Of a stretch of DNA of 64,000 bases, positions 2,321 to 42,617 are shown piece by piece. The position numbers and the translations under genes were made by a program. Each line of letters begins with the position of its first letter. Positions within the stretch are counted from its first letter, which is position 1. The notes beneath the pieces were generated by a model. The model did not search any database. It was not told the DNA's origin and worked only from the letters and a program-made list of their open reading frames with translations. Origin of the DNA: an uncultured Gimesia sp. (lineage in GTDB: Bacteria; Planctomycetota; Planctomycetia; Planctomycetales; Planctomycetaceae); NCBI RefSeq assembly GCF_963976445.1, contig NZ_CAXBKP010000008.1, forward strand, positions 42,026 through 106,025, in the 5' to 3' direction.

Positions 2321-3934
2321 TCAGACTTCGATCGACTCGATCTCCGATACGAACCGACCTGCATCCTTACCCACAAACGAGGAGACCACGTTGAACACGG
2401 CGTCACTGAAGCCGCCGATGTTCAGGATGTCGTCTCGTTCCGGAGCCTGCGTTGAACCGTAAGGCTGGATGTCGATACAAACCAGCTTCGGATCAACCAC
2501 ACCAAGCCGCCTCTGGTTCTTCACGAACGTCTGCCACTCGGCCATCACACCGGTCGAACCATAGTGGCCCGCGCCAACCCAGCTCTCGTTGTCGCTCACC
2601 AGCACACAACCGGCAAACGCGCGTTTGCTCAATCGTGCATTGGCTTCGCGGAGCGGAACCGAACAGTCGGTTCCGCCGCCGCCGAACTTCGCCAGTCGCT
2701 CTGACAGACTCAGGATTGAGTCGGACGCATCAAAGCGAACGTCGTACGCCCGGGTATCGAACGGAATCACCACGCTGTCCGGATTACGCCGCAGAATGGC
2801 CGCCGCAAACAACGCCGCCACATCCACACAGCGCATCTTGCTGACAGCACCACGGCCCTGCCAACCCGTCGCAGGCGAACTCATCGAATAGGACGTATCC
2901 AAACCGATGACCACAGGCTCCACCAACTCCGGCACATTACCGCAGGCGATCTCAGCTGCAGTATGCAGGGCTGCTTTGATCTTGTGCGGAATTTCCGACG
3001 CCACATTCAGGTACGCTGCCAGGAACTGGTACGGAAACTGCCGTGAACGACGGATTGCCTTTTCGTCCGTCAATCGTTCGGCCACGTAATCCACCAGCGC
3101 ACTGTCTTTGAACACCTCGTGACGCAACAGCGTGTTAAGGTTCATCCGCAGCGCCTGCGGTCCCATCTGTCGGGCAATCGCCTTCCAGACCAACGGACCT
3201 TTGGCCGCATCGGCCAGCAGATCCCAACGCACAGACAGATCTTTCACAATCTCCGCCTGCGCTGCGTCCGTTTCTGCCTGTCGATATGCGATCAACGCCT
3301 GCACCTGTGCTGGCAGGTCAGCTTCCGTTGCAGGAGCCCACTTTTCAAGCTCCTTACCCGTCAGCCAACCAAACAGCGCACGTCGCGCATTGTCTTTTGG
3401 CGTTGGTCGCGCCATTCGCAACACATCGCGCAGACTCGGATCGTTGCCGATCGAAGCTGACAGCAACTTACCCACCGATGCCTCGTTCAGCCAGCGTTGA
3501 TACGCGCGCTGCAGACTAGACGACAAACTGCTACGACCGAACTGCCCCGAACGGATCATCTGGAACATCGTGCGCAGCACGCGGCCATTGTCCACCACCC
3601 GATCGAACACACGGTGCAGCAATTCGGTATTCCGCTTCGACAGAACCACCAACAACGCCGCCGGCATATCCTTCATGAAGGCACGCTCACGCGCGTAAAC
3701 CGCCAGCTGCGCCAGGAAGCGATTGTCATCGACCTGATCGATCAGTTTGTGTATCTCATCCAGCTGGCTCTGCGCGCTCGCATAGAACACGCCGTTGAAG
3801 CAGCCGGTGGCCGCCATCTGTGCCAGTGCCTGCTTCGGTGTGAACTTGTATGCCAGGCCTCCCGCTTCGTTGCGCGCGTTCGCGCGTGGCAGGTTACTTT
3901 TGCGACTGGAAAATAACGTTTTGTTGGCCATCAT
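2321..3934 (-). CDS. rsr: Ro60/Rsr TROVE-domain RNA-binding protein with C-terminal vWA domain
   Basis: 537 aa. TROVE hallmarks: N-terminal NEAGG.AY, AVYARE...[28 protein letters not shown]. vWA MIDAS-like DTSYSM, GGGTD and SDNE motifs. RBS AAAGGAGG at 3944-3937. Confidence 0.92.
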
Positions 3935-3955
3935 AGCCTCCTTTCAAAATAGGGG

Positions 3956-3996
3956 TCCGACGAAAACAGGATCAGTCAACGTTGACTGCAGTCGAA
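3956..3996 (-). promoter_or_regulatory. Miniature Y-RNA-like hairpin in the rsr 5' leader
   Basis: TTCGAC-TG-CAGTCAACGTTGACTG-ATCCTGT-TTTC-GTCGGA. The closing stem and flanks repeat the CGACTG.../...TTCGTCG motif of the upstream units around a perfect 16-bp palindrome (3973-3988). Confidence 0.45.
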
Positions 3997-4008
3997 CCAT
4001 GTAAGCAG

Positions 4009-4148
4009 CACTCGACGAAGTAATGGGCAGAGTTTTCCCTGTGACGTCGCACGCGCGGATCACAAGGTCCGAACCAAATTGAAAAGTTAAGTGGGCCGGG
4101 CAGGATTTGAACCAGCTTTGCCATGTACTCCACTCCGGCAGTCGAGTG
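4009..4148 (-). ncRNA. Y RNA-like unit Y4 (YrlA-like; D arm replaced by a longer hairpin)
   Basis: 8-bp terminal stem CACTCGAC/GTCGAGTG, 5' motif TGCCGGAGTGGAGTACATG, 3' motif ACTCTG...CTTC, T arm GCTGG-TTCAAAT-CCTGC. Lies immediately upstream of rsr. Confidence 0.8.
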
Positions 4149-4164
4149 AGTTTTGTTAAAAAAT

Positions 4165-4298
4165 GATCGACGAAGTTGTTGAACCAGAGTTTTTTTCCAA
4201 TGCTCTGCCAATTGAGCTACAGCGTGGCATGCTTAAACAGGGAACGCTGGTGGGGCTCGAACCCACAATAGTCATGTACTCCCATTCGGCAGTCGATC
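4165..4298 (-). ncRNA. yrlA: Y RNA-like unit Y3 (YrlA-type tRNA mimic)
   Basis: Stem GATCGAC/GTCGATC and motif TGCCGAATGGGAGTACATG. T arm GTGGG-TTCGAGC-CCCAC precedes a loop-closed acceptor stem CAGCGT/ACGCTG and D arm TAGCTC-AATTGGCA-GAGC, the permuted order known for YrlA. Confidence 0.85.
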
Positions 4299-4354
4299 CT
4301 GTTTAAAGTGACGTTGTAGTCCTCTCAGAAAGTCAATATTTCAGTTTCAAAAAA

Positions 4355-4497
4355 GACCGACGAAGTTGTGTACCAGAGTTTTTACGGTGCTCTAACCTTT
4401 GAGCTACGGCGCGACACGCTTTGTGAAATAGCGCCGGTGGGACTCGAACCCACAACCACCGGGATCTAAACCATGTACTCCAGTTCGGCAGTCGGTC
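4355..4497 (-). ncRNA. yrlA: Y RNA-like unit Y2 (YrlA-type tRNA mimic)
   Basis: Stem GACCGAC/GTCGGTC, motif TGCCGAACTGGAGTACATG pairing with ACTCTGG, T arm GTGGG-TTCGAGT-CCCAC, loop-closed acceptor CGGCGC/GCGCCG, D arm TAGCTC-AAAGGTTA-GAGC. Confidence 0.85.
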
Positions 4498-4553
4498 CTG
4501 TTTGAAAGTGATCATGTTATCCCAACGAATTGTTGGATTTTTATTACAACCTT

Positions 4554-4620
4554 CCAACGAAGGATTTGCTCAGACACGGGTTCTTTTTTACAGAAAGATG
4601 TAGTCCGAGCCGGCAGTTGG
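4554..4620 (-). ncRNA. Short Y RNA-like unit Y1 without a tRNA-like domain
   Basis: CCAAC-TGCCG-GCTCGGAC-TACAT...GTCTGAGC-AAATC-CTTC-GTTGG. Same stem, internal loop and ACAT signature as Y2-Y4, but capped by a simple hairpin. Confidence 0.7.
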
Positions 4621-4628
4621 TCGGTTTA

Positions 4629-4700
4629 AGACGCCAGTGGGAGTCGAACCCAGTTCCGACTGCTTTGCAGGCAGCCGCCCGACCATCAGGTTCCAGCGTC
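4629..4700 (-). tRNA. tRNA-Cys(GCA), non-canonical core, no encoded CCA
   Basis: GACGCTG GA ACCT GATGGTC GGGC G GCTGC CTGCAAA GCAGT CGGAA CTGGG TTCGACT CCCAC TGGCGTC T. U73 discriminator fits Cys. A10-C25 and C49-C65 are mismatched. Confidence 0.8.
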
Positions 4701-4707
4701 AGTGAAG

Positions 4708-4780
4708 TGCCCCCGTCAGGAATTGAACCTGATCTACGAGCTTCGCGGGCTCGCGTGCGAATCCGGCACACTCCAGGGAC
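4708..4780 (-). tRNA. tRNA-Arg(GCG), non-canonical core, C33, no encoded CCA
   Basis: GTCCCTG GA GTGT GCCGGATTC GCAC G CGAGC CCGCGAA GCTCG TAGA TCAGG TTCAATT CCTGA CGGGGGC A. All four stems pair, and A20 and C35 Arg identity elements are present. Confidence 0.8.
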
Positions 4781-4793
4781 CTCATATTCTCAG

Positions 4794-4864
4794 TACCTCG
4801 CCAGGGAGTTGAACCCCGTCTTATGGATTAGAAGACCACCGTGCGTCCATCACACTCGCAAGGC
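4794..4864 (-). tRNA. tRNA-Arg(TCT), non-canonical core, no encoded CCA
   Basis: GCCTTGC GA GTGT GATGGAC GCAC G GTGGT CTTCTAA TCCAT AAGA CGGGG TTCAACT CCCTG GCGAGGT A. A20 is present and there is a T31-T39 mismatch. Confidence 0.75.
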
Positions 4865-5108
4865 ATCCCATTATTAAGAACCAACGAAATCACAATCGCT
4901 GGCTGCCGATGAAAGACAGTGCACCATCGCCGGCGGTTCGCACCTTTCAGAAATCTTTCTGTCAGTTTCGCAGAATCAGCATGCGACGATGTCGGAAAAG
5001 GAGAGGCATAAAAAAAGGGATGAGGTAAAATCACTCACACAAGGTATCAGCGTTGTGTGCTACGGTTAGCATGTCCAATCGTGATTTCGATTCAAGTTTG
5101 AGTCTGTT

Positions 5109-5169
5109 TTCTCACTGTCGGGCCAGCCGACAGTGACACACGACACGGTAATTACATCTACAAAACAAG
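5109..5169 (+). repeat. REP-like palindromic repeat, copy 2
   Basis: TCACTGTCGG-GCCAG-CCGACAGTGA hairpin plus a tail similar to 2204..2263. Confidence 0.8.
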
Positions 5170-5191
5170 CCTTAAATGACCACACATGTAG

Positions 5192-5231
5192 AAACAAAAA
5201 GCCCCTGGTCCGATTTCTCAGACCAGGGGCT
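5192..5231 (-). terminator. Intrinsic terminator of katG
   Basis: 11-bp stem AGCCCCTGGTC/GACCAGGGGCT followed on the minus strand by TTTTGTTT, ~60 nt after the katG stop. Confidence 0.8.
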
Positions 5232-5294
5232 CGTTTCATTGACCGTCTCGAGTTTCCACTCGAATCGTCATTTATCAATCACTCACTCAAAAGA

Positions 5295-7724
<2,430 letters not shown>

Positions 7725-41801: not shown

Positions 41802-42617
41802 ATGAATACAAAACAAGTATTTTATGCCGCACTATTTGTTACTTTTGTCCAACTAGCCAGTGCTCAAAGCGCTCTCGCACAATATTATTTTGAACGAGAT
41901 CCAACGAGTTACGTAAGGGTAGTCGACGACATGGCAGCCGCTGTAATTGGATACGACTTATGGAATACTATTCCTCCATACAATAGTATTCCGTATCTCA
42001 ACGATCTAGATGTGGACAATTCAGATACAGGAGAGCAATCCCTGATCGCTGCGTTAACTAGCTCAGTGAGTACATCCTCTACTGTAATAGGCTATGTCAC
42101 AGCGTCTTCCAATACACAAATGACGTTCAACCCTGACTTAGTTGCCAATGGTCAGGTCTCTGCTCTTGCTATCAACACAGCGATCGCTGCATTGGATAGT
42201 GGGACTTATGAAGGTAGTCTTGCTATATTAAGTTCTACTGGTAGTAATACAAGAGCGATATGTTCGGCTAAGTTTACACTAAAAAATTCGCAAACTAACG
42301 CACCTCCGACACAAGTGAAATTAAAAATCAGACAGAGTATTTCACTCACGGATGATCCTGATTTTTTTTGGGTCCCTTCGCATAGTTTTTCCATTTATAA
42401 AAACGGATCATCGACAGCGTCATTAACATCTTCTTCTGATGGAGAAGTGACATTCATCGATCCAGCTGCAGTTCACGGTGACTATTATACTATTACCGGG
42501 ACAGTGAGTGCGGAGGGGGGGGTATCTAAATCAGGTCCATTACAGGCCCATCAAATGCTCCTGTTGGGTGGTAGCTGTGAGGTAACAGGTGAAGCCGAAG
42601 TTTCAGTTGTTCCTTAA
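41802..42617 (+). CDS. Secreted Ser/Thr-rich hypothetical protein
   Basis: 271 aa, signal peptide ending ALA-Q, RBS GGAAAGAG, AT-rich. Confidence 0.75.
   Translation: MNTKQVFYAALFVTFVQLASAQSALAQYYFERDPTSYVRVVDDMAAAVIGYDLWNTIPPYNSIPYLNDLDVDNSDTGEQSLIAALTSSVSTSSTVIGYVTASSNTQMTFNPDLVANGQVSALAINTAIAALDSGTYEGSLAILSSTGSNTRAICSAKFTLKNSQTNAPPTQVKLKIRQSISLTDDPDFFWVPSHSFSIYKNGSSTASLTSSSDGEVTFIDPAAVHGDYYTITGTVSAEGGVSKSGPLQAHQMLLLGGSCEVTGEAEVSVVP

Follow-up and report, generated by a model that had tools for sequence, protein, structure and literature searches.

The DNA considered here (64,000 nucleotides (nt) of an uncultured Gimesia sp.; assembly GCF_963976445.1, contig NZ_CAXBKP010000008.1, forward-strand positions 42,026 to 106,025; the whole stretch is referred to as the window, and coordinates without a prefix are window positions) carries on its minus strand a compact series of small RNA genes leading into rsr, a gene of the Ro60/TROVE family. 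Read along the minus strand, three tRNA genes come first (4629-4864); four Y-like RNAs follow (4005-4626), and between these and rsr itself (2321-3934) lies a mini Y-like hairpin (3950-4001). An initial annotation of this DNA had listed the same parts, and ARAGORN (for the tRNAs), a lineage covariance model (for the Y-like RNAs) and Pfam (for the TROVE gene) confirm the list. The tRNAs, Y RNAs and rsr constitute a real, tightly packed and co-inherited same-strand unit. They are not the separate, Rtc-independent new system that had been proposed: the unit is the broken-off tail, the 3' end, of an island of spare tRNA array, Y RNAs and Ro60 that is widespread among planctomycetes.

The rsr gene encodes a protein of 537 amino acids; its ATG start codon (3934-3932) follows a ribosome-binding site, AAAGGAGG, at 3944-3937. 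Pfam assigns a TROVE domain (45 bits, with a threshold of 23) and a vWA_Ro60 domain (52 bits, threshold 27.7) to the product, and residues 13-521 align with residues 20-530 of Deinococcus radiodurans Rsr (2NVO; E 1e-26). The DxSxS metal-site motif of the vWA domain is kept as LDTSYS, and the defining arrangement of Ro60/Rsr proteins (TROVE, then a Ro60-type vWA domain with metal-site motif, in ~530 amino acids) is present. The narrow Rsr equivalog model of NCBIfam returns 100 bits, relative to a cut-off of 900 bits, and the rsr product is therefore classed as a distant orthologue. Relatives of this protein number 252 in Planctomycetota genomes, at 72-84% identity. No gene is conserved on the 3' side of rsr across 80 related loci, and three small open reading frames (ORFs) that lie downstream of rsr, below position 2000, have no match in Pfam, NCBIfam or PADLOC.

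Between tRNA-Cys and rsr, a repeat search finds one 5' motif in four copies. Paired motifs are likewise present upstream of related rsr genes (5' GACUGCCG-N-GGAGUACAU and CUCUG-N7-CUUCGUCG 3', 1-8 per locus). An alignment (A1) of 71 planctomycete units of the T-arm plus D-arm type, with Y RNAs 2 and 3 of the window among them, yields a proposed structure of six helices. These comprise closing, second and junction stems (the last of three pairs) together with a T arm, a D arm and, between the two arms, a closed acceptor-like stem. In A1, 95.8% of the cells pair, whereas sliding the partners lowers the figure to 34-48%; 24 of the 35 pairs show compensatory changes, and none of 500 shuffles reaches the observed values. 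The layout that defines YrlA, in which a closing stem interrupted by an internal loop is succeeded by the T arm, the closed acceptor-like stem and the D arm, is thus reproduced with covariation support.

The lineage covariance model built from A1 (R1) is matched over its whole length by Y RNA 2 (4350-4501; 145.7 bits) and Y RNA 3 (4160-4302; 105 bits), both of which are members of its training set. It also detects three elements outside that set: Y RNA 4 (4005-4151; 57.2 bits, E 5e-14), Y RNA 1 (4547-4626; 38.4 bits, E 3e-9) and the mini hairpin (14.8 bits, E 0.003). Their modules are distinct, as the initial annotation supposed in speaking of several different Y RNAs. Y RNAs 2 and 3 are YrlA-like and contain both a T arm and a D arm as well as the closed acceptor-like stem (in Y RNA 2 a U run then follows); Y RNA 4, which shares the 5' motif (repeat family D1), combines the Ro-binding stem and a T arm with a long hairpin that replaces the D arm; and the short Y RNA 1 consists of Ro-binding stem and small hairpin, with no tRNA-like module (fold z -3.2). 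In the mini hairpin, which belongs to the rsr leader, the Y closing stem encloses a short inner hairpin; the element ends ~10 nt ahead of the ribosome-binding site (fold z -2.5). Eight of 10 genus members retain it, and its closing stem shows a compensatory change (CGAC/GTCG versus CGGC/GCCG). By its functional definition a bacterial Y RNA is encoded no farther than 4 kb from rsr and is bound by Rsr; as to proximity, all of the units lie no more than 700 nt upstream. Scored with the Rfam YrlA model (RF02553; gathering score 69 bits), Y RNA 2 reaches 46.4 bits and Y RNA 3 34.8 bits; the units of planctomycete relatives reach 32-46 bits. Only the tRNAs pass an Rfam scan of the window at gathering thresholds.

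Two further sets of RNAs lie outside the window. A Y RNA type of ~165 nt is found in 28 of 79 related loci (for example at L011:2658-2824, L013:3159-3325 and L014:3068-3243). It carries AUGACGGUCCUAAGGUAGCGA, 21 nt identical to the junction of helices H69 and H70 of 23S rRNA, and a gapped likeness extends into the H71 region (local score 57-63; shuffles average 27, with a maximum of 46). The source genome assembly lacks the corresponding 23S segment; direct alignment to a same-genus 23S sequence supports the likeness, and the module gives no large-subunit rRNA match in Rfam and no BLAST match to E. coli. This type appears to be a Y RNA whose module mimics rRNA. The second set, on contig C12 of the source genome (C12:39854-40200, L008:7855-8200) and far from rsr, consists of two tandem RNAs with T arm, closed acceptor-like stem and D arm; the first scores 37 bits by the lineage model and the second opens with a Y-type motif, TCGACTGCCGGAAG. 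They come after a DUF7873 gene, and an EndoV-like gene and a DUF6940 gene are nearby.

The three tRNA genes identified by ARAGORN are, in order, Arg(TCT) (4793-4864), Arg(GCG) (4707-4780) and Cys(GCA) (4629-4700). Their Rfam tRNA scores are low (35-40 bits), and none of them encodes CCA. The source genome has a full ordinary tRNA set and, in addition, 20 odd tRNAs in three clusters: this trio, 12 on contig C18 and five on contig C2. Since the ordinary set is complete without it, the trio is supernumerary, and in this respect the initial annotation is supported. A common core distinguishes all three, with G8, G14, C21 and A48 replacing U8, A14, A21 and Y48. Across related loci the G8/G14/A48 core recurs in 38 of 44 tRNA-Cys(GCA), in most orthologues of Arg(GCG) and also in Arg(TCG), and the other array tRNAs mostly have the usual U8/A14/A21; the altered core is specific, across species, to the Arg(NCG) and Cys tRNAs that adjoin the Y RNA array.

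The tRNA-Cys of the window has U73, as do 44 of 44 tabulated relatives. In an alignment of 43 tRNA-Cys sequences 98.8% of stem cells are paired, compensatory changes are found in 11 of 19 pairs and the GCA anticodon is invariant; an A13/A22 mismatch is present in most relatives. The Arg types mostly have 7 of 7 acceptor pairs and 5 of 5 T-stem pairs. The attributes of functional tRNAs (intact cloverleaf, conserved anticodon, identity elements) are all present, and by these sequence criteria the trio genes are under selection and not decaying. Arg(TCT) is identical in 66 of 72 positions to Arg(TCG) of the closest relative and is the orthologue of the relatives' Arg(TCG) after an anticodon change. 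C33 of tRNA-Arg(GCG) was considered as a family trait and rejected (only 8 of 30 orthologues have it).

Distribution within the genus shows what belongs together. The rsr gene is present in 11 of 19 genus members and in 2 of 11 class relatives. Nine other genus rsr loci were retrieved with flanks, and in all of them two or three tRNAs adjoin: Arg(TCG) and/or Arg(GCG), then Cys. The stretch of tRNAs and Y RNAs is found only in genus genomes that have rsr, and the main tRNA array also occurs without rsr (see below); the trio, the Y RNAs and rsr are therefore one presence/absence unit, separable from that array. The description of one tightly packed minus-strand unit, already made in the initial annotation, is accordingly borne out in the further sense that the unit is gained or lost whole within the genus. 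In four of the complete genus genomes rsr lies at a similar coordinate (242-292 kb). Direct repeats of ~100 nt, 80% identical, bracket the 2.9-kb tRNA/Y/rsr unit: the upstream copy (5106-5205) contains a hairpin of the repetitive extragenic palindromic (REP) type at 5113-5136, and the downstream copy (2201-2300; hairpin 2207-2230) lies just past the rsr stop codon. The 30-nt REP-like hairpin core of these repeats occurs about 20 times in the source genome. The katG gene (5295-7676) does adjoin the unit directly upstream, as had been remarked; however, this adjacency is incidental. KatG has its own strong 15-bp terminator at 5199-5232 and lies 7 Mb from rsr in the closest relative, and it was rejected as part of the unit.

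One way of accounting for these associations is by descent only: the Y RNAs would have arisen from adjacent array tRNAs by tandem duplication, the trio would be processing signals or drifting spares, and nothing would tie tRNA supply to Ro60. The Y modules indeed derive from tRNA, as their T arm, D arm and acceptor-like stem show; in the genus, rsr and the large array can occur apart; and the changed anticodon of the Arg(TCG) orthologue suggests a relaxed decoding constraint. On the other hand, the trio accompanies rsr in every rsr-bearing genus member and is absent otherwise, cloverleaf, GCA anticodon and U73 are conserved with compensatory changes across families, and the Arg and Cys tRNAs nearest rsr have their special core in common across species. 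Descent only is, on balance, an unlikely explanation.

The island of which the unit is the tail is seen in other planctomycetes, where 56 rsr loci whose upstream sequence extends for 3 kb or more were available for counting. Same-strand tRNAs precede rsr in 40 of the 56; at least three are present in 35 loci and at least ten in 14, with a maximum of 29 within the 4-kb flank (locus L013, 29 tRNAs in 2.9 kb). This is the survey of planctomycete TROVE loci that the initial annotation had called for. The last tRNA before the Y RNAs is Cys(GCA) in 33 of the 40 loci. From these counts it follows that in the ancestral layout a long spare-tRNA array is succeeded by Y RNAs in an array of their own, with rsr last. 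Certain ORFs recur inside related loci: an HNH endonuclease (9 loci), an SPFH-YbjN protein (28) and an uncharacterised 201-amino-acid protein (20). The second of these is a fusion of SPFH/Band 7 and YbjN of 559 amino acids (for example L055:1162-2841); in these 28 loci, out of 80, its gene is inserted into the tRNA array that precedes rsr. In a relative of another family (G010) a single strand carries 15 tRNAs together with an uncharacterised ORF, tRNA-His, an RNA ligase of the Rnl type (PF09414), the Y RNAs, rsr and RtcB.

In the source genome the array is split. Contig C18 has 12 spare tRNAs (C18:75478-76754, L010:8479-9755), followed (L010:9954-12159) by a 2OG-Fe(II) oxygenase, an uncharacterised 260-amino-acid protein and an RNA ligase (PF09414) of the same type as that of G010. 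Contig C2 has five (C2:196540-197057, L009:8541-9058; Phe, Glu, Ser, Ser and His), and directly after them comes an HNH endonuclease ORF (L009:9090-9686), homologues of which are located within tRNA arrays at nine related rsr loci. What stayed attached to the Y RNAs and rsr in this genus is no more than the final three tRNAs, the G8/G14/A48 subgroup. (Just past the C18 array, at L010:9756-9960, there is a further T-arm element, GTTGGGTTCGATTCCCATC, that ARAGORN does not call a tRNA.) A tRNA array unit, as defined by Tran et al., has at least 20 tRNA genes at a density of at least 2 per kb. With three tRNAs in the window and 12 in its largest fragment, the source genome has no array of the tRNA array unit/L-array kind; relatives such as L013 do, and the supernumerary character of array tRNAs holds in the source genome as well.

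The initial annotation also stressed the lack of linked Rtc genes. None is present in the window, and this much of the claim stands. The source genome has one RtcB, on contig C54, and neither RtcA nor RtcR, and a Salmonella-type operon (rtcB with rtcA, and RtcR nearby) is absent. The lack of linkage is true here but is not a property of the island, because relatives have RtcB right after rsr and an RNA ligase in the locus: beyond G010, RtcB follows rsr directly in two or three loci, and an Rnl-type ligase lies inside three.

The island might also be regarded as a conflict island of phage or mobile origin, in which spare tRNAs, ligases and Ro60/Y particles would counter tRNA- and rRNA-cutting toxins, the Y RNAs serving as decoys or sensors. 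(This overlaps with the reading preferred here and puts defence first.) Ro-like genes are found inside phage tRNA islands with HNH genes (Myxococcus phage Mx1, 40.6% identity; Streptomyces phage Jollison); HNH genes in the arrays, the patchy occurrence of rsr in genus and class, the direct repeats that flank the unit and the Y RNA with a 23S H69-H71-like module in some relatives are all consistent with such a history. However, no phage structural or integrase genes adjoin the unit, PADLOC returns no family match for Rsr or its neighbours (except generic HNH and 2OG), the position of rsr is similar, between 242 and 292 kb, in four of the complete genus genomes, and no toxin partner was identified. 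It is doubtful that conflict is the primary function.

We consider it reasonably probable that the window region, as the terminal segment of a conserved planctomycete RNA island that has been split in this genus, operates through a common precursor and Rsr in the following manner. The unit would be transcribed as a single precursor from a promoter ~50-75 nt ahead of tRNA-Arg. The candidate is GCGAACC-N16-TGTCT (4941-4914, minus strand), which resembles promoters of extracytoplasmic function (ECF) sigma factors and is the sole part of the upstream region that all ten genus loci have kept; a search for a sigma-70 consensus ahead of the first tRNA found none. (Upstream of the Arg tRNAs a 15-codon ORF, MPLLFRHRRMLILRN, 5009-4962 on the minus strand, has four CGN Arg codons. 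It was examined as a leader-peptide attenuator and rejected: it is not conserved even in the closest relative and is probably due to chance.) The 3' ends of the tRNAs need an endonucleolytic cut, since none of the trio has an encoded CCA, and RNase P and RNase Z would together excise them. The closing helix of Y RNA 1 starts 2-3 nt past the tRNA-Cys discriminator, and the first Y motif starts 10-11 nt past tRNA-Cys in 27 of 43 related loci; because of this spacing, cleavage after the discriminator would also generate the 5' end of Y RNA 1. There is precedent in Mycobacterium smegmatis, where YrlA and YrlB come from a single precursor and YrlA is a substrate of RNase P (PMC4201824).

By analogy with known Ro60 particles, we infer that Rsr binds and stabilises the shared closing stem of each Y RNA (5' ACUGCCGNNNNGGAGUACAU ... 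CUCUG-N7-CUUCGUCG 3') and that the differing modules (two tRNA mimics, a T arm with hairpin, a short hairpin) steer it to different partners or substrates. Its targets might be structured RNAs of the translation apparatus, for surveillance, degradation or repair. The tRNAs made from the same precursor would supply extra Arg and Cys decoders, and Rsr may monitor its own abundance through the mini Y of the rsr leader.

Several observations weigh against this scheme. The U runs after Y RNAs 2 and 3 could stop transcription ahead of rsr. The three array fragments have no promoter motif or repeat in common, and GCGAACC-N16-TGTCT is absent before the other fragments and before RtcB. A C18-type array is present, at a distant site, in 18 of 19 genus genomes, including those that lack rsr; since the main array persists without rsr, tRNA array and Ro60 are not mutually dependent. 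The Y RNAs of the window fall below the Rfam YrlA gathering score and by that threshold are not members of the family. Finally, the closest relative no longer has the mini Y leader, a different hairpin having taken its place, so that a feedback role is possible but not essential.

A more ambitious version would make the island a programmable Ro60 surveillance system. The island would provide a Y library with modules that mimic parts of the translation apparatus (the tRNA elbow here; 23S H69-H71-like in 28 of 79 related loci), and the same precursor would yield core-rewired Arg and Cys tRNAs. The modules would then be adaptors or baits that bring Rsr and linked RNA ligases to damaged tRNA or rRNA, or to the damaging agents, and the rewired tRNAs would escape the damage (G8, for instance, cannot become the UV-crosslinking 4-thiouridine). 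This extension is a speculative one, with perhaps one chance in several of being right.

What makes the locus worth pursuing is that it joins two questions, the role of Y RNA modules in bacteria and the purpose of long spare tRNA arrays, and offers comparative material for both: Y RNAs that number up to eight in a genome and differ in their modules, a defined subgroup of tRNAs adjoining the Y array, and repair ligases that come and go. What the window presents is the smallest combination preserved as a whole in evolution: the Y RNAs and rsr with two or three tRNAs. The components are known separately. The combined island was not found described in the searchable literature, in which no paper joins 'tRNA array' with TROVE or Y RNA (this being absence of evidence only).

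Three known systems bear comparison. The first is the bacterial Ro60/YrlA/YrlB system (Salmonella rsr-yrlBA-rtcBA, M. smegmatis, D. radiodurans; PMC4201824), in which the same TROVE plus vWA gene has same-strand Y RNAs directly upstream. At least one Y RNA there has the same YrlA order of T arm, D arm and closed acceptor-like stem, a GNCGAA-type motif is likewise present on the 5' strand, and a short hairpin-type Y RNA also occurs (PMC4201824); RtcB after rsr in some planctomycete relatives is a further likeness. The differences are that two to four Y RNAs are described there, whereas the window has 4-5 Y-like elements and relatives have up to eight; that Rfam YrlA scores are sub-threshold here; that the unit here includes tRNA genes, with no RtcA or RtcR in the genome and RtcB unlinked; and that planctomycete relatives add module types, including the 23S-like one.

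The second comparison is with tRNA array units (Tran et al. 2016, PMC4758250) and L-arrays (Santamaria-Gomez et al. 2021, PMC8421152). Long spare tRNA arrays have been described, in Planctomycetes among others, with a neighbouring HNH gene and with co-regulation with rtcB (PMC4758250, PMC8421152); in Anabaena the tRNA array is co-regulated with rtcB under translational stress. Those arrays and the planctomycete island have in common that their tRNAs are spare, densely set on one strand and duplicates of the housekeeping set, that they occur patchily and that an HNH homing endonuclease is a neighbour. PMC4758250 and PMC8421152 make no mention of Ro60, TROVE or Y RNAs, whereas the array here is reduced to a three-gene tail beside rsr and the tRNAs nearest rsr have the G8/G14/A48 core.

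The third comparison is with the tRNA islands of large phages (mycobacteriophages, Streptomyces phages, Myxococcus phage Mx1), which have the same Ro-like gene among many tRNAs together with HNH; YrlA-like RNAs are also reported in mycobacteriophages (Chen et al. 2014, PMC4201824). The best phage relative of Rsr is only 40.6% identical, however, and the planctomycete unit is chromosomal and free of phage genes, with a tight order of its own: tRNAs, then the Y RNA array, then rsr.

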